Assembly (NCBI GenBank): GCA_040905715.1
Contig: JBBDRA010000002.1
Location: 101,968 to 165,967 of the forward strand
Source: Minisyncoccota bacterium
GTDB taxonomy: Bacteria > Patescibacteriota > Minisyncoccia > Phycocordibacterales > CSBR16-193
Direction: 5' to 3'
DNA length: 64,000 bases
Part shown: positions 34,977-59,127 of the stretch, piece after piece
Numbering within the stretch: the first letter of the stretch is position 1
Layout of the letters: every line of letters begins with the position of its first letter
Translations under genes and position numbers: made by a program
The notes under the pieces: model-generated
Databases searched by the model: none
The model's input: the letters and a program-made list of their open reading frames with translations, nothing else
What the model was told of the DNA's origin: nothing

Positions 34977-35105
34977 TGTCCGCCCGGTAGCCTGCCTGCC
35001 GGAAGGCAGGGAATCGCCTCTCCCTTCGGTCGAAATGCGCTAAAAACATAGTCGCAAGCCTGTCTGCCAACAGGCAGGCTCCTTGTTTTTAGGCACCTTC
35101 GGTTC
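34977..35105. repeat. Degenerate partial copy of the tRNA-Lys 3-prime region interrupted by a 20-nt hairpin insert, plus an inverted T-loop-like ggttcgattcc
   Basis: tgtccgcccggtag[cctgcctgccggaaggcagg]gaatcgcc compared with the real tgtccgcccggtaggaatcgaacc at 35164-35190. Confidence 0.55.
35057..35090 (+). terminator. Intrinsic terminator after holA
   Basis: Stem agcctgtctg / caggcaggct with loop ccaa, followed by ccttgttttt. Confidence 0.5.
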
Positions 35106-35119
35106 GATTCCTTCCCAAG

Positions 35120-35157
35120 CATACAAAACAAAGGCACGGGAGAAAACCCGTGCCTTT
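35120..35157 (-). terminator. Intrinsic terminator downstream of tRNA-Lys
   Basis: Stem aaaggcacggg/cccgtgccttt followed on the minus strand by ttttgtat. Confidence 0.55.
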
Positions 35158-35284: not shown

Positions 35285-35400
35285 CGAATGCACCGCCCGA
35301 AAGATTTTCTTACGGGCGGGAATGAGCGGTATCGCGCGAGAGCTAGCTCTCGCATGATCCGCGATTGACCGTTCGCAAGCTTTGCTTACGGGCGGGTAAT
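35285..35400. repeat. tRNA-Lys upstream region with two partial copies of the tRNA 5-prime end and palindromes
   Basis: cccgcccgtaag copies (minus-strand sense) at 35309-35320 and 35386-35397. Perfect 18-bp palindrome gcgagagctagctctcgc at 35336-35353. Confidence 0.5.
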
Positions 35401-41170: not shown

Positions 41171-41222
41171 TGTACTTAATTTTCTGATGCCCCGCTGGCT
41201 GGCGGAGAACTAGAAAAAGAAG

Positions 41223-41250
41223 TGCTCCCGGCAGGAATCGGCCCCGCGAG
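41223..41250. repeat. Partial duplicate of the tRNA-Arg(GCG) 3-prime end (att-like)
   Basis: gtgctcccggcaggaatcg repeats the sequence at 41499-41517. Confidence 0.6.
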
Positions 41251-41257
41251 TTCTAAG

Positions 41258-41400
41258 TATTTTGCTTCGCTCAAACAAATAAGGCTTCTTGTGTTTTCTT
41301 CGAAAACATCCGCGAAGCGAATGTGTGCTTTTTTGGATACGGAACGTTACACTTGCAAAAAACACACATTCGCCTGGCCGGCGCCTCACATCGCTACGCG
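41258..41400. repeat. Repeat element copy A (about 135 bp; second copy at 51364-51500)
   Basis: Shares a 53-nt exact core cttcttgtgttttcttcgaaaacatccgcgaagcgaatgtgtgcttttttgga and a conserved long hairpin cgaatgtgtg...cacacattcg. Confidence 0.6.
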
Positions 41401-41465
41401 ATATGTTCCGGCGCTTCGATTCCTGACGAAAGTGCAGAAATGCACTTTCTCCGGAAACACAAATT

Positions 41466-41496: not shown

Positions 41497-41499
41497 TTG

Positions 41500-41571
41500 T
41501 GCTCCCGGCAGGAATCGAACCTACATTACGAGCTCCGCAAGCCCGCGTTCTATCCGTTGAACTACGGGAGC
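41500..41571 (-). tRNA. tRNA-Arg (anticodon read as GCG)
   Basis: Acceptor GCTCCCG/CGGGAGC, D-arm GTTC-AACGGATA-GAAC, anticodon stem CGGGC/GCTCG with loop TTGCGGA (G37), T-arm GTAGG-TTCGATT-CCTGC. Confidence 0.75.
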
Positions 41572-41720
41572 AAATGAGGGGTATCGCGCAAAAGCATACT
41601 CTCTGGCAAGTGAGGGATACGAGAAAACTCGTTTTCATCGTATCACGAACGAAGTCAGAGAAAGCTATGCGACTTTGTTTTCTTTTGAACAGCTTTGCTT
41701 ACGGGAGCAAGGCTTGCGTC
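41565..41720. repeat. tRNA-Arg(GCG) leader region, inverted homolog of 45996-46130, including a partial tRNA 5-prime copy
   Basis: Over 90% identity in reverse complement to the leader of tRNA-Arg(TCT). The ttgctcccgtaag copy is at 41698-41710. Confidence 0.6.
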
Positions 41721-42692: not shown

Positions 42693-42777
42693 CGGAGGGC
42701 TGCGCCGAATGGCTAAGGCACCGGTCTTGAAAACCGGCGGGTTCACGCCCTTGTGGGTTCGAGTCCCACGCCCTCCG
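42693..42777 (+). tRNA. tRNA-Ser (anticodon TGA)
   Basis: Type II tRNA. Acceptor GGAGGGC/GCCCTCC, anticodon stem CCGGT/ACCGG with loop CTTGAAA, long variable arm, T-arm GTGGG-TTCGAGT-CCCAC. Confidence 0.8.
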
Positions 42778-42843
42778 CACCGAGATTATTTATGAGTTTG
42801 CTCACTTGCTACTGCATACCGAATACGAGATACTGAATACTGT

Positions 42844-45829: not shown

Positions 45830-46194
45830 GAATTTGCTCCCGTAAGTAAACTTGCTCTGACAACGCTCGGACGGTACGTAAACGCGTTTCCGACCGCTCC
45901 TCGCTTGTCAGAGTAAGCGAAGCTTTCGAAAGCTACATTCGCGGATCATGCAAAAGCAAGCACCACCAGGGCACTTCTTGTTTTCTAATTCACAGCGAAG
46001 CTGTTCATAAGAAAACAAAGTCGCATAGCTTTCTCTGACTTCGTTCGTGATACGATGAAAACGAGTTTTCTCGTATCACTCACTTGTCAGAGAGTATGCT
46101 TTTGCGTGATGCCGTTCACTTGCTCCCGTAAGCGAAGCTTTCGGGATCTGCGTTCGAAGAAAATAGAAGTAAACTTCAATTTTGCTTCTCACTT
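45830..46194. repeat. tRNA-Arg(TCT) leader with two partial tRNA 5-prime copies and nested palindromes
   Basis: ttgctcccgtaag at 45834-45846 and 46119-46131. Palindromes agctttcgaaagct (45921-45934) and aaacgcgttt. 45996-46130 is the inverted homolog of 41565-41700. Confidence 0.6.
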
Positions 46195-46266
46195 GCTCCC
46201 GTAGTTCAACGGATAGAACAAGGGGCTTCTATCCCCTCAATGTGGGTTCGATTCCTACCGGGAGCA
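46195..46266 (+). tRNA. tRNA-Arg (anticodon TCT)
   Basis: Acceptor GCTCCCG/CGGGAGC, anticodon stem AGGGG/CCCCT with loop CTTCTAT, T-arm GTGGG-TTCGATT-CCTAC. The first 25 nt are identical to tRNA-Arg(GCG). Confidence 0.85.
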
Positions 46267-46271
46267 CAATG

Positions 46272-46318
46272 AAACACACGGATGTTTTTGAAAAAAACAT
46301 CCGTGTGTTTCGTATTTT
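46272..46318 (+). terminator. Intrinsic terminator (18-bp stem aaacacacggatgttttt/aaaaacatccgtgtgttt) after the tRNA
   Basis: Seen in sequence. Confidence 0.55.
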
Positions 46319-46422
46319 GGAGTAGGAATCGAACCGGGAAGGGGTCGGGGAACGGTAGTTCCCCGTGAAGGAAAGGTGGAAAAACCGTGGGTTTTCCAGA
46401 TGTTCTTTCCTGCCGGGAGCAC
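46319..46422 (+). repeat. tRNA-associated structured element, copy 1 (GGGAAGGGGTCGGG hairpin family)
   Basis: Left flank ggagtaggaatcgaacc, hairpin cggggaac-ggta-gttccccg, second hairpin ggaaaaacc-gtg-ggttttcc, right flank cctgccgggagcac (tRNA 3-prime duplicate). Confidence 0.6.
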
Positions 46423-51363: not shown

Positions 51364-51500
51364 TGCCTTGCTTCGCAAACAAATCTTCTTGTGTTTTCTT
51401 CGAAAACATCCGCGAAGCGAATGTGTGCTTTTTTGGAGATGGAGCGCTTCGCTAGCAAGAAACACACATTCGGCTGCGCCTTTCTCGTCCCTACGCAGGC
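51364..51500. repeat. Repeat element copy B (homolog of 41258-41400)
   Basis: Same 53-nt core as copy A (positions 51385-51437) and the same cgaatgtgtg...cacacattcg hairpin with a different loop. Confidence 0.6.
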
Positions 51501-51519
51501 AAAGCAGTTTGCCTGCTCA

Positions 51520-51588
51520 ACGCCCACAAAGCAAAAATCTGCACGAATAATTCGCACAGATTTTTGCTTTGTGGGCGTTGAGGGACTC
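51520..51588. repeat. 24-bp perfect-stem hairpin overlapping a partial duplicate of the tRNA-Val 3-prime end
   Basis: caacgcccacaaagcaaaaatctg...cagatttttgctttgtgggcgttg. tgtgggcgttgagggactc at 51570-51588 repeats the sequence at 51720-51738. Confidence 0.55.
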
Positions 51589-51719
51589 AAATCTTACAGA
51601 TTCTGTACAGGTTTTCACTATTTTGTTTCGTTCCTCACAAAATAGTTGAAGAACCTTTTCGAGTCCGCGTTACGCCGCTGTCGCGGCTACGCCTCATCGT
51701 CCTCGCTCCTTCGTCGCTG

Positions 51720-54420: not shown

Positions 54421-54450
54421 AGTAAATCCACAGCTTGTGGATTTACTTTT
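54421..54450 (+). terminator. Hairpin agtaaatccacagcttgtggatttact plus T-run after rplS
   Basis: Seen in sequence. Confidence 0.5.
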
Positions 54451-54482
54451 ATCTAATTTGGTATACAATAAACACTAGAGAT

Positions 54483-55130
54483 ATGAGACGTGGATCAAAA
54501 CCAAAAGGGAAGGTGCGGATACAGTGGTCGTCTAACTTTGCGTATGCAATTGGTTTGCTTGCGGCAGATGGATGTTTATCAAAAGATGGTAGGCATATTG
54601 ACGTAACATCGAATGATTACGATCAACTTGAAAATTTTATTAAAGCTCTTGATATTGACGTAAAAATTACTCAAAAATCATCCGGAAGAGGGTATACAAG
54701 TTGGCATGTTCAGTTCAGTGATGTTCTTTTTTATAAGTTTCTTACTGAAATAGGTATAACCTCAGCAAAGAGTAAGACATTAAGAAAGCTTGATATTCCC
54801 GACGAATACTTTTTTGATTTTTTAAGAGGGGAATTTGATGGGGATGGACATTTTTATAGTTATTGGGATAAGCGATGGACGAATAGTTATATGTTTTATT
54901 TAACTTTTATTGGTGCAAGTCAGAAATTTCTTGAATGGATTTCACAAACTAATGAGCGTCTCATTGGTATAAAAGCGAATGTAATTTTTTGTAAAAAATC
55001 AAAGGTATATCAGTTACGTTATGCAAAAGAAAGCACTCTGGAAATAATCAATAAAATGTATTATACTTCCAGCGCACTTCATTTGAGGAGAAAAAAGAAA
55101 AAGATAGATGCTTTAGTAGTGCCTCGATAA
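54483..55130 (+). CDS. Free-standing double-motif LAGLIDADG homing endonuclease
   Basis: Motif 1 AYAIGLLAADGCL and motif 2 FLRGEFDGDGHF. AT-rich gene with its own ATG after the rplS terminator. Confidence 0.75.
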   Translation: MRRGSKPKGKVRIQWSSNFAYAIGLLAADGCLSKDGRHIDVTSNDYDQLENFIKALDIDVKITQKSSGRGYTSWHVQFSDVLFYKFLTEIGITSAKSKTLRKLDIPDEYFFDFLRGEFDGDGHFYSYWDKRWTNSYMFYLTFIGASQKFLEWISQTNERLIGIKANVIFCKKSKVYQLRYAKESTLEIINKMYYTSSALHLRRKKKKIDALVVPR

Positions 55131-55134
55131 TAAT

Positions 55135-55216
55135 GCCCAGGTGGCGGAATTGGTATACGCAATAGGTTGAGGGCCTATGCTCCTAGAGCGTGCGGGTTCA
55201 AGTCCCGCCCTGGGCA
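55135..55216 (+). tRNA. tRNA-Leu (anticodon GAG)
   Basis: Type II tRNA. Acceptor GCCCAGG/CCTGGGC, anticodon stem ATAGG/CCTAT with loop TTGAGGG (G37), variable arm GCTCCTAGAGCGT, T-arm GCGGG-TTCAAGT-CCCGC. Confidence 0.8.
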
Positions 55217-55259
55217 CAAAAGAACGAAGTGAATTTTGGGAACAGGGCTGCGAACTGTT

Positions 55260-55390
55260 TACGGAGTAAACAGGAGCTGGGACTTGGGGAAGGGGTCGGG
55301 AAACGGGAGTTTCCCGTGGAGGAAGGCAGCGACCGAAGGGAGTGTTGGAAAACCGCGGGTTTCCAAGTTAGTCTTGCCCTGGGCACAAAA
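55260..55390 (+). repeat. tRNA-associated structured element, copy 2, ending in a 15-nt duplicate of the tRNA-Leu 3-prime end
   Basis: Motif ggggaaggggtcgggaaacgggagtttcccgtggagg (55287-55322), second hairpin ggaaaacc-gcg-ggtttcc (55347-55364). gccctgggcacaaaa at 55376-55390 repeats 55207-55221. Confidence 0.65.
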
Positions 55391-55391
55391 A

Positions 55392-55418
55392 AAGACCAGC
55401 ATCAAGCTGGTCTTTTTT
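55392..55418 (+). terminator. Intrinsic terminator (agaccagc/gctggtct plus T6)
   Basis: Seen in sequence. Confidence 0.55.
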
Positions 55419-58256: not shown

Positions 58257-58763
58257 ATGGAAAGGAGTTGTGAAATATGTAAAGCGACGTTTAAAACAAA
58301 ACCTTATTTTATTCGGAAAGGGCAAGGGCGCTTTTGTTCTAAAAAATGTCAATACGAAAGTTTCAAAACTGGTTCAAGTATCACTTGCGATACCTGTAAG
58401 AAGAACGTCTATAGGAATAGGTCGGGCTTAGGTAGATCCAAGAGTAGGAAATTCTTTTGTTCAAAATCGTGCCAAACAAAATGGAGAAATACGCAGTACA
58501 GTAGAGAGAAACATTTAGGTTGGAAGGACGGCGTTTCGTCATATCGAAATGCCATGCTAAGAAATAATGAATCGCAAGAGTGCAAGTTTTGCAAAGAAGT
58601 CGATGTGCGAGTTCTTGTTGTCCACCATGTTGATGAGGATCGAACCAACAACAAACTGGAAAATCTTTGCTGGTTATGCCATAATTGCCACCACCTTGTT
58701 CACCATTGCAAAGGCGAGTCAGAAAAGATTCGCTCGATCATTGGTAAAGGCAAAGAACAGTAG
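58257..58763 (+). CDS. HNH endonuclease (tandem paralog)
   Basis: HNH core VHHVDEDRTNNKLENLCWLCHNCH. Same architecture as the preceding gene. Confidence 0.7.
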   Translation: MERSCEICKATFKTKPYFIRKGQGRFCSKKCQYESFKTGSSITCDTCKKNVYRNRSGLGRSKSRKFFCSKSCQTKWRNTQYSREKHLGWKDGVSSYRNAMLRNNESQECKFCKEVDVRVLVVHHVDEDRTNNKLENLCWLCHNCHHLVHHCKGESEKIRSIIGKGKEQ

Positions 58764-58850
58764 CATATGGTGCCTATGGTATAATGGTTATTACGGAAGC
58801 TTGTGGAGCTTCAAATTCCAGTTCAATTCTGGATAGGCACCCAGAATATA

Positions 58851-58882: not shown

Positions 58883-58898
58883 TAGTAAGAAGTTACCG

Positions 58899-58945
58899 GG
58901 AATCGAACGGGAAGGGGTCGGGAAAACTAGAGTTTTCCCGTGAAG
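58899..58945 (+). repeat. tRNA-associated structured element, copy 3 (partial, no adjacent tRNA)
   Basis: ggaatcgaac followed by gggaaggggtcgggaaaac-taga-gttttcccgtgaag. Confidence 0.55.
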
Positions 58946-59127
58946 TCTGCCTGCGGGCGCTGTCAGGGAAAGCTCTGCTTATGAATGGAATGAATTAGGA
59001 AACAAGCAATGCTCTTTGGGTATTTCCCAGAAGTGAGATAGCGACGGAATCCCGCTTTCGCGGGCTCAGCTTTTTCGGAGACTTATTCTCAGCCAAAATC
59101 ATATATAACCTGTGATACTATTCACTC

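Follow-up and report, generated by a model that had tools for sequence, protein, structure and literature searches.

A 64,000-nt stretch of the Minisyncoccota contig JBBDRA010000002.1 (hereafter the window, meaning the whole stretch) carries three copies of a short element in which a conserved, hairpin-rich core lies between two arms. The copies sit 66-69 nt 3´ of tRNA-Arg(TCT), tRNA-Leu(GAG) and tRNA-His(GTG), each on the strand of its tRNA; tRNA genes in the window were called with ARAGORN and the Rfam tRNA model. All three contain the 14-mer GGGAAGGGGTCGGG, which occurs exactly three times in the window, always on the + strand (46336, 55287 and 58909), and three matches were reached in none of 100 shuffles of the window. 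A covariance model (CM) built from 45 foreign copies only, and run against the window with filters off, recovered these three copies alone, at 82.8, 61.0 and 36.1 bits; the next match had E=0.28, and there are no further copies in the 64 kb. The first-pass annotation had proposed three structured copies, two of them behind tRNA genes whose 3´ ends they duplicate. The three copies are borne out, and a tRNA 3´-end duplicate does close copies 1 (46409-46422) and 2 (55376-55390), although a tRNA in fact precedes all three. We conclude that this is a real, unannotated and widespread structured element, whose combination of features is unlike any known RNA or mobile-element family tested.

The layout of the element is gene end (X), spacer, inverted X (the 5´ arm), core, and direct X (the 3´ arm), always in the orientation of the gene. 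Copy 1 follows tRNA-Arg(TCT) (46195-46267, +; ARAGORN; 66.5 bits with the Rfam tRNA model), whose last ~20 nt, from the T-loop to the 3´ end, are the X copied by the arms. Its spacer (46270-46312, +), picked up by a terminator scan, holds a 20-bp terminator-like palindrome and then a T-rich tail. The 5´ arm (46322-46335, +), GTAGGAATCGAACC, is the exact reverse complement of GGTTCGATTCCTAC in the tRNA, comprising the T-loop and the 3´ strand of the T-stem, a 14-nt inverted match; weak microRNA-type Rfam matches likewise trace a hairpin that joins the T-arm of the tRNA with the 5´ arm (46243-46337). The core (46336-46402, +; E=1.7e-19 with the CM; predicted fold) is made up of the purine leader GGGAAGGGGT (46336-46345), a first hairpin (H1, 46346-46365), a joiner (46366-46376) and a second hairpin (H2, 46377-46398). 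A tRNA-Arg 3´ end is repeated, in direct orientation, in the 3´ arm (+), CCTGCCGGGAGCAC. The first-pass annotation had taken each duplicate to come from the tRNA directly in front. This is so for copy 2, but the arm in copy 1, TTCCTGCCGGGAGCAC, has the same sequence as the 3´ end of the other tRNA-Arg, that with anticodon GCG (41499-41517), and is 1 nt off the adjacent tRNA, which has CCTACC.

Copy 2 follows tRNA-Leu(GAG) (55135-55217, +; ARAGORN, Rfam). Within its 5´ arm CTGGGACTTG (55277-55286, +), GGGACTTG is an inverted copy of CAAGTCCC from the T-loop and T-stem of the tRNA. The core (55287-55366, +) runs through leader, H1 (55297-55316), joiner, an optional hairpin at about 55327-55347 and H2 (55345-55366). 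The CM match covers 55287-55350 and puts the H2 of the model on the optional hairpin; the true H2 was read from the sequence. The 3´ arm GCCCTGGGCACAAAA (+) is a direct repeat of 55207-55221, which comprises the tRNA-Leu 3´ end plus 4 flanking nt, and it overlaps the start of an intrinsic-terminator-like hairpin (55388-55418).

Copy 3, behind tRNA-His(GTG) (58770-58842, +; ARAGORN, Rfam), is the most divergent in layout. Its 5´ arm CCGGGAATCGAAC (58896-58908, +) is a T-arm complement whose match to tRNA-His is only approximate, and its core (58909-59030, +) consists of the leader and H1 (58919-58940), then an ~80-nt expansion that stands in place of the joiner and opens H2, and the H2 3´ strand TTTCCCAG (59023-59030). 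The CM match spans 58909-58970; the rest was assigned by sequence reading. The 3´ end (59033-59053, +) contains a T-loop-like GTGAGAT, AGCGACG at the mini-hairpin position, and GAATCCC, which pairs with the 5´ arm. There is no tRNA-His 3´-end duplicate here, and the arms pair with each other without an exact match to tRNA-His. The GTGAGAT and AGCGNAGCG modules recur in many foreign copies, and comparable expansions are found in L025, L037, L051 and L116. Copy 3 had been drawn as 47 nt (58899-58945); it extends to about 59053, with the large expansion inside H2. The earlier description of where the copies start had also missed the inverted tRNA T-loop/T-stem in each of them. The statement that the hairpin after the core motif varies yet stays paired is confirmed in all three copies: the H1 stems are CGGGGAAC/GTTCCCCG, CGGGAAAC/GTTTCCCG and CGGGAAAAC/GTTTTCCCG, paired despite their differences. 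The second hairpin said to be common to copies 1 and 2 is likewise present at the positions given above.

The element is not confined to the window. A pattern scan (GGGAAGGGGTCGGG, a gap of 8-18 nt, then CCCGTG), with one genome per species, returned at least 120 loci; about 105 of the matches listed are true copies, the remainder being chance matches in high-GC coding DNA. These foreign copies carry L numbers, and the family counts given below for targets, arms and neighbours refer to those ~105 copies, in loci of 8 kb. Within the same loci the CM added five copies with an inexact motif, and it scored up to 90 bits in ~90 foreign loci. The listed hosts are nearly all Patescibacteria (the candidate phyla radiation, CPR): Saccharibacteria, Paceibacteria/Parcubacteria lineages, Berkel-, Uhr-, Falkow- and Moraniibacteria, and Minisyncoccia. 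Three contigs labelled Gammaproteobacteria or Bacteriovorax (L019, L089, L009) look like mis-binned or mislabelled Patescibacteria, because they show a CPR-like rplL context, tRNA and element. No true copies were found in 2.9 million viral contigs, which gave two chance matches in coding DNA. Metagenome relatives reached through the ribonucleotide reductase (RNR) small-subunit gene, which lies ~1 kb 3´ of copy 1, were at best 69% identical and carried no elements, and an exact-protein match of the neighbouring Gam-like protein led to the same strain only.

Nor is the element a known RNA family by the searches made, in keeping with the first-pass annotation, which had recognised none. We searched Rfam 15 with the window at the gathering threshold, with copy 1 at E<=10, with the consensus-like L108 at E<=5, and with 20 loci not linked to tRNA. 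Only tRNA, rRNA and tmRNA passed; copy 1 and L108 otherwise returned long-hairpin microRNA-type and ylbH noise, far below threshold. A literature search on the motif and on CPR tRNA-flank elements turned up no description.

Aligned copies share the order GGGAAGGGGUC, H1, purine-rich joiner, optional hairpin, H2, GGAG, GNA mini-hairpin, GACGAC. This conserved core is ~90-110 nt long and contains no open reading frame (ORF); the whole insert measures 100-250 bp. The H1 consensus is CGGGAAAC, a 4-nt loop, and GUUUCCCG. The joiner has the consensus G(A/C)GGAA(GG), the optional hairpin is often tipped with GCGAAGC, and H2 is an 8-10-bp stem around an ACC-GNG-GGU apex. After H2 come GGAG, then the GNA mini-hairpin or a longer hairpin, then (C)GACG(AC) and the 3´ arm. 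In complete copies the predicted fold is a three-way junction closed by a helix of the two arms.

The compensatory changes that had been noted in the hairpins are sound for both H1 and H2. H1 shows AU-to-GC double changes across the aligned copies, and H2 occurs in 46 distinct variants in 82 copies, with 8-10 bp kept in 78 of the 82. In an unfitted MAFFT alignment of 45 copies we counted 45 double-change cells, against 19.2+-3.2 in shuffled alignments (0 of 500 shuffles reached it), and the true register beat all slid registers. We base the claim on these two results, the excess over shuffles and the superiority of the true register. Chance similarity or neutral duplication of DNA, for which the small initial sample of copies is the one thing that could be said, is hardly credible given the shuffle counts, the CM scores in foreign loci, the covariation and the strict, strand-specific association with gene 3´ ends. 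The earlier step from compensatory change to selection on RNA holds for the covariation but goes too far in naming RNA, as single-stranded DNA (ssDNA) would fit equally well.

Several other interpretations of the core were tried and rejected. A small ORF on either strand is excluded by the H2 covariation and the optional hairpins, and a G-quadruplex fails on its fourth G-tract, in the H1 loop, which is unconserved. A tRNA- or tmRNA-like gene on the minus strand would need a stem to match its T-loop-like motif, which is absent; the 5´ arm copies the 3´ strand of the T-stem (GTAGG), not the 5´ strand (GTGGG). The dinucleotide after CCCGUG is associated with the H2 loop, UC going with GAG in 11 of 12 cases, GC with GAGG or GAUG in 13 of 15, and GA or AA with GUG in 34 of 46. 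The association is strong, but it follows no consistent Watson-Crick rule, which speaks against a pseudoknot between joiner and H2 loop; the association may reflect subfamily history or a tertiary contact.

The hosts of the element are highly conserved, highly expressed genes, and it lies from a few to ~100 nt downstream of them. In about 70 listed copies the gene in front is a tRNA, 19-103 nt away and without exception on the strand of the element; 18 amino-acid types are represented. Contrary to the first impression of a tRNA-adjacent element, the same core also stands, with arms of the respective gene, behind tmRNA (L076), behind rplL directly after the stop codon (seven scanned loci), behind rpsI (L098, L029, L057) and at a duplicated 18-codon ORF, which it flanks (L105, L063); further non-tRNA sites exist. 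In every context the arms are target-derived and reproduce the final 10-50 nt of the host gene. At tRNA genes the 5´ arm consists of the reverse-complemented T-loop, 3´ strand of the T-stem and at times the whole acceptor 3´ strand, with exact inverted matches of up to 22 nt (e.g. L091, L120). The 3´ arm is a direct copy from the T-loop/T-stem to the tRNA end or beyond, 7 to >100 nt long with a median segment of ~16 nt; the left edge of the repeat is fixed in the T-loop/T-stem and the right edge is variable. The spacer is often palindromic (copy 1 of the window, W1; L120, L079, L057). Because 71 element-free tRNAs in the same loci lack an inverted copy of their own 3´ end (median longest inverted match 0; the three exceptions bear related elements), we conclude that the inverted arm arrives with the element and rejected its origin in a native terminator.

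Arm-arm duplexes are stronger than in shuffled controls, and this helix could be taken for a conserved stem of a host-beneficial structured RNA. Such an RNA might be a 3´-end module, co-transcribed with the gene before it and active in cis or trans: a block to 3´ exonucleases, a processing stalk, or a mimic of the acceptor/T-arm minihelix on which tRNA-processing enzymes would act, with the arms as its closing or processing stem. The covarying hairpins and a core highly conserved across CPR lineages speak for it, as do the predicted three-way junction with its closing arm helix, an arm helix that reproduces acceptor and T-stem in L091, L120 and L016, and the presence of this or an analogous insert at six of the seven window tRNAs. 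In copy 2, moreover, a terminator is predicted after the 3´ arm and none between tRNA and element. The arms themselves tell a different story. Across 65 tRNA-linked copies with 965 comparable positions, divergence from the tRNA affected the 5´ arm alone 105 times, the 3´ arm alone 83 times and both 4 times, with ~3 expected; there is no compensatory signal, and the arm helix was rejected as a conserved RNA stem. In L057, behind rpsI, the downstream copy keeps APQFSKR-stop with all eight codons synonymously different through third-position changes, and by base-by-base reading only two of the eight keep pairing with the 5´ arm. Because the two arms diverge independently from the gene, they look like insertion footprints in decay rather than a selected helix, and the tRNA-derived ends are not, as had been supposed, part of the conserved structure.

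Where the two gene-end copies differ, the 5´ arm has the base of the functional upstream copy 195 times, as against 84 times for the downstream copy (p=2.5e-11). The downstream gene-end peptide is identical in L073 and one residue different in L009, and the downstream copy has lost the stop codon or the frame in L084, L088 and L060. The pattern is that of a downstream gene end that was displaced or imported and then decayed, and it argues against splicing to the downstream copy. As to whether this copy travels with the element at rplL, the figures are mixed: the downstream copies there are more uniform than the functional ends over the first 12 nt only (85% vs 77%), and not over 27 nt (69% vs 74%).

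The distribution of the element is patchy: apart from the host tRNAs, only ~18% of tRNAs in the fetched loci bear any such insert. The rplL 3´ site illustrates polymorphism among genomes whose L7/L12 is 92-97% identical to that of L079. The site is apparently empty in L212, holds this core in L079 and L206, and in L204/L208, L213 and L215 is occupied by three other cores whose arms are laid out in the same way. Remnants are tolerated too, in L210/L211 and L214: L214 retains only an internally deleted inverted arm before a terminator, and L210 the inverted arm with the initial 15 nt of the core, fused at that point to the promoter region downstream. These remnants show a route of loss for the insert, and that an inverted arm may outlast the rest of it. 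Patchiness, relatives with an apparently empty site or a different core, the truncated remnant in L210 and the terminator-like hairpin that parts tRNA from element in copy 1 all count against a host-beneficial RNA, which we regard as unlikely. The many targets, the site polymorphism and the nested and tandem insertions are the behaviour of an insertion element rather than that of an RNA gene with a housekeeping role.

Near-identical cores at different sites add to this picture. L055 and L057, from one metagenome-assembled genome (MAG), share 102 identical nt at two sites with unrelated flanks. In L003, two tRNA-Leu genes 460 nt apart bear cores that differ by 1 nt, with unrelated spacers and with 3´ arms that match their own tRNA. 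Nested or tandem insertions occur in L025, L037, L051, L116, L085 and L206, either inside H2 loops or in tandem with other cores. The modules nested in the H2 apex or in other inserts (L025, L037, L051, L116, L206, and the tRNA-Pro flank of L012) are CGACC, a hairpin and GAAGTACYCYKGTGGTG, or GAAAGGTGTACNG...CTGTAAG; the latter is found in both orientations, and the tRNA-Val insert of the window contains a relative (~51600-51625).

The order X, spacer, inverted X, core, X is also what single-strand hairpin integration would predict. The element could thus be an integrative satellite with a folded ssDNA hairpin att site, comparable to CTX-phi, or a scar of tRNA/tmRNA integrative elements. A trans-acting tyrosine recombinase (Xer-like or an integrase) would then recombine a stem, formed by pairing of the gene end with its inverted copy and resembling the duplex target, with the chromosomal gene end. 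The targets are classic for integrases, the gene is kept intact while the displaced end decays, the left edge of the repeat is anchored in the T-loop, accretion in tandem is seen at tRNA-Met in L085, and ssDNA is delivered by transformation in these bacteria (PMC10633639). On the other side, no integrase or Xer protein lies beside any listed copy, and the 2.9 million viral contigs are devoid of copies. A single recombinase would need to work on more than 25 target sequences unrelated to one another. The spacers are wholly different between near-identical cores, so that spacer and upstream gene end are not obviously transferred, and the direct repeats range from 7 to >100 nt. We think this reading distinctly unlikely.

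A scaffold followed by a target-identical 3´ segment (median ~16 nt) is at the same time the layout of an omega-RNA, which brings in a guide RNA that stands alone: a protein would bind the core as a scaffold, and the arms would be guides for an unlinked RNA-guided recombinase, transposase or nuclease, in the manner of the IS110 bridge RNA or the TnpB omega-RNA. Two arms that address both strands of one site, arms reprogrammed for each target around a constant scaffold, and insertion at "safe harbour" positions behind essential genes would suit such a system. Yet the arms pair with each other; in bridge RNAs, the guide segments lie in internal loops. The arms also decay without purifying selection, the repeats are very variable in length, no TnpB, IscB, IS110-type or other candidate ORF lies in or beside the ~105 listed copies, and Rfam gave no match to known guide scaffolds. 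A guide RNA is accordingly very unlikely.

The neighbourhood of the copies shows no linked protein. No neighbouring protein of the ~105 listed copies is enriched (at most 8 of 105; L10, L7/L12, an ABC-F ATPase and others), no transposase family is enriched within 8 kb of them, and no integrase/Xer or reverse-transcriptase cluster lies beside them. In the window, the neighbours are a Gam-like protein, RNR, a 515-aa protein without a Pfam match, a NUDIX protein, and LAGLIDADG and HNH ORFs. A LAGLIDADG-type ORF (54435-55130, +) ends 4 nt before the element-bearing tRNA-Leu, and an ORF at 58257-58763 (+) ends 6 nt before the element-bearing tRNA-His and has a sub-threshold match to HNH PF13392 (20.8 bits against a cut-off of 24.8, E=3e-4). 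In several foreign loci (L008, L065, L069, L208), small GIY-YIG or LAGLIDADG-like ORFs also precede either the rplJ-rplL operon or tRNAs that bear the element. Breaks made by homing endonucleases may conceivably be linked to the insertions.

We favour, with a probability of about one half, the reading that the element is a non-autonomous, probably mobile structured insertion module with a functional conserved core and with arms that were templated on the local gene end at insertion. The wider family is best explained as one member of a group of structured insertion modules that lack an ORF and are specific to Patescibacteria. In our model, the core would fold as + strand single-stranded nucleic acid, be it read-through RNA or ssDNA, and the most likely route of movement would be copy-and-paste by template switching or fold-back synthesis at the host gene end. 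A fold-back product would consist of gene end, turn, inverted gene end, core and direct gene end, and could also account for a palindromic spacer. The arms would then decay, and the element could pass between genomes when DNA is taken up by natural transformation and recombines with homologous sequence. Both processes have been demonstrated in Saccharibacteria, and com genes are conserved across the CPR (PMC10633639). Spread of this kind is plausible because Saccharibacteria are transformable and both flanks of the insert are homologous to extremely conserved sequence.

Six points weigh against this reading. First, no enzyme or autonomous partner was found beside the ~105 listed copies, so that any mechanism built on host replication or repair is conjectural. 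Second, the rplL comparison of empty and filled sites yielded no clean pair from near-identical genomes, and does not fix the exact inserted unit or which gene-end copy is native. Third, identical cores at different sites could result from gene conversion between old copies and not from recent movement. Fourth, simple template switching of a fragment with symmetric inverted repeats does not predict strict co-orientation, which needs a transcript-dependent step or selection. Fifth, strong conservation of the core (66 identical nt between a Saccharibacteria MAG, L024, and a Zambryskiibacteria MAG, L036) and the covariation would also fit a host-useful RNA. Sixth, the scan demanded the exact 14-mer, which makes the invariance of the motif partly a matter of ascertainment; variants occur in L003 and L206.

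A bolder version is possible but doubtful. It would make the element one of a protein-less mobile class, common to several cores, that makes its insertion arms from the conserved gene end it lands behind. In the form of RNA or ssDNA, a core of GGGGUCG plus hairpins would call in a polymerase or recombinase of the host, or catalyse the reaction itself; the last 10-50 nt of the gene would be copied inverted and direct; and the product, a homology cassette of the element's own making, would home to the same universally conserved site in other genomes after natural transformation. We file the element as a form of small non-autonomous insertion element, with a substantial chance that it is something further from the known kinds.

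It shares some features with each known class tested and lacks a defining one of each. Like miniature transposable elements with inverted repeats (MITEs) and repetitive extragenic palindromes and their mosaics (REP-BIME), it is short, ORF-less, multi-copy, intergenic 3´ of genes, hairpin-rich, prone to nesting and presumably mobilised in trans. A MITE, however, requires element-specific terminal inverted repeats common to all copies; the arms here are copies of the neighbouring gene end that differ at every locus, and the duplication is 7 to >100 nt rather than a target-site duplication of fixed length. Unlike both MITEs and REPs, the element has its orientation tied to the host gene and its interior is a conserved, covarying multi-hairpin core, and no parent insertion sequence was found in the 8-kb flanks.

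Tyrosine-integrase elements at tRNA and tmRNA genes are said to fall into sublocation classes, reportedly set out by Williams in 2002. With such integrative elements the family shares its 3´-end targets, direct repeats of the gene 3´ part that flank the insert and run from the T-loop to or past the gene end, an intact gene, a decaying displaced end and tandem accretion. It differs in being 100-250 bp without an integrase, in the inverted target copy by a structured core, and in having one core at more than 25 unrelated targets. In CTX-phi and the integrative mobile elements exploiting Xer (IMEX), an inverted target copy beside the integrated end also folds with the direct copy and mimics the duplex target, and the product order matches; the target here, in contrast, is not dif, there is no phage genome, the arms are target-specific, and the "loop" is a conserved structured core and not an arbitrary spacer.

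Group IIC introns are likewise structured, occur in the same bacteria and insert co-oriented just after terminator hairpins, and gene function is kept in both cases. The element, though, has no Rfam intron match, domain V or reverse-transcriptase ORF, is far too small for a group I or II intron and lies outside the gene, and its downstream gene-end copies decay (stop or frame lost in the three loci named above) and are thus not maintained exons. Group I introns in CPR tRNA genes sit in the anticodon loop (35/36; PMC13011429), and this candidate was rejected for an element outside the gene. Retrons resemble it in terminal inverted repeats that close a stem around a G-rich start and conserved hairpins (a1/a2, msr-msd), but the element has no adjacent reverse transcriptase or effector in the window or at the 105 listed loci, its arms are host-gene copies, and there are many copies per genome at gene 3´ ends. 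With TnpB omega-RNAs and IS110 bridge RNAs it has in common a constant scaffold, short target-matching segments and targets behind conserved genes; it differs in the absence of an adjoining nuclease or recombinase gene, in mutually paired, decaying arms and in long, variable repeats.

Transitions in the 3´ arm are somewhat more often wobble-compatible (7.5%) than incompatible (4.9%; odds ratio 1.6, p=0.048), and the arm duplex is better on the + strand in 63 loci and worse in 37, which weakly suggests that the + strand is the one that folds. Co-orientation and the place behind strongly expressed genes suggest read-through transcription. The terminator predictions differ between copies, with a terminator-like hairpin between tRNA and element in copy 1 and the predicted terminator beyond the 3´ arm in copy 2. 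GCGNAGC mini-hairpins, which are unusually stable as DNA, are frequent in the copies. The active form may thus be a read-through RNA or, fitting equally well, ssDNA.

The three copies are not the only inserts in the window: structured inserts of 120-270 bp, this or an analogous one, stand at six of its seven tRNAs, and tRNA-Ser(TGA) (42694-42778) alone is bare. Those at tRNA-Lys-TTT (34985-35125, -), Arg-GCG (41222-41445, -) and Val-TAC (51590-51718, -) have the same arm layout around different cores, with the inverted T-loop copies GGAATCGAAC, GGAATCGAAG and GGACTCGAA and with the tRNA 3´ end directly repeated at the terminus. Sister cores elsewhere include those of L047 (Leu/Val) and those with GGGGTCGCG plus a hairpin in L038 (Glu), L078 (Met) and L213 (rplL); a GGGGTCG motif is common to them and the core studied here. 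In the tRNA-Val region there is also a palindrome (51516-51582) with 33-nt arms, 94% complementary, whose outer arms are a duplicated tRNA-Val 3´ end and its reverse complement, the inverted copy sitting downstream of the direct one.

Duplication upstream of the genes affects tRNA 5´ ends as well (45834-45857, 46115-46139 and 46186-46205; for tRNA-Lys, 35292-35396, -). The sequence CACTTGCTCCCGTA occurs twice before tRNA-Arg, and the pseudo-starts are followed by AGCGAAGC or AGCAAAGC and a hairpin, an arrangement that mirrors the 3´-end duplication. Because the two opposed tRNA-Arg genes share a 137-nt upstream region, present as an inverted repeat (41563-41699 and 45994-46130; 93% complementary), they are paralogous units. 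A 101-nt direct repeat, 88% identical, lies in the tRNA-Arg(GCG) insert (41276-41376) and downstream of the tRNA-Val insert (51376-51476); it contains the hairpin sequence GAATGTGTG...CACACATTC and probably belongs to another small repeat family.

Patescibacteria have genomes among the smallest and most streamlined of all bacteria, and yet inserts stand at six of the seven tRNAs in the window; to be tolerated there, such an insert must therefore be either very selfish or useful. In both cases the annotation of tRNAs and att sites and the prediction of genomic islands can be led astray by duplicated gene ends, and the family and at least three sister cores merit covariance models in public databases. 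If the element is mobile, its arms record a targeting principle not described for bacterial repeats, in which the host gene end serves as the source of the terminal repeats. It would then be a natural "knock-in cassette" for the most conserved sites of a genome, could explain horizontal spread across divergent CPR lineages, and might be exploited for genetics in bacteria that are hard to manipulate but naturally transformable. Should the arms indeed be self-templated, this would be a new mode of target choice and of spread, with homology borrowed from the target and not set by a transposase or a fixed guide. If the element is instead a functional RNA, it would represent a widespread, unannotated CPR RNA family linked to the expression of tRNA, tmRNA and ribosomal proteins.

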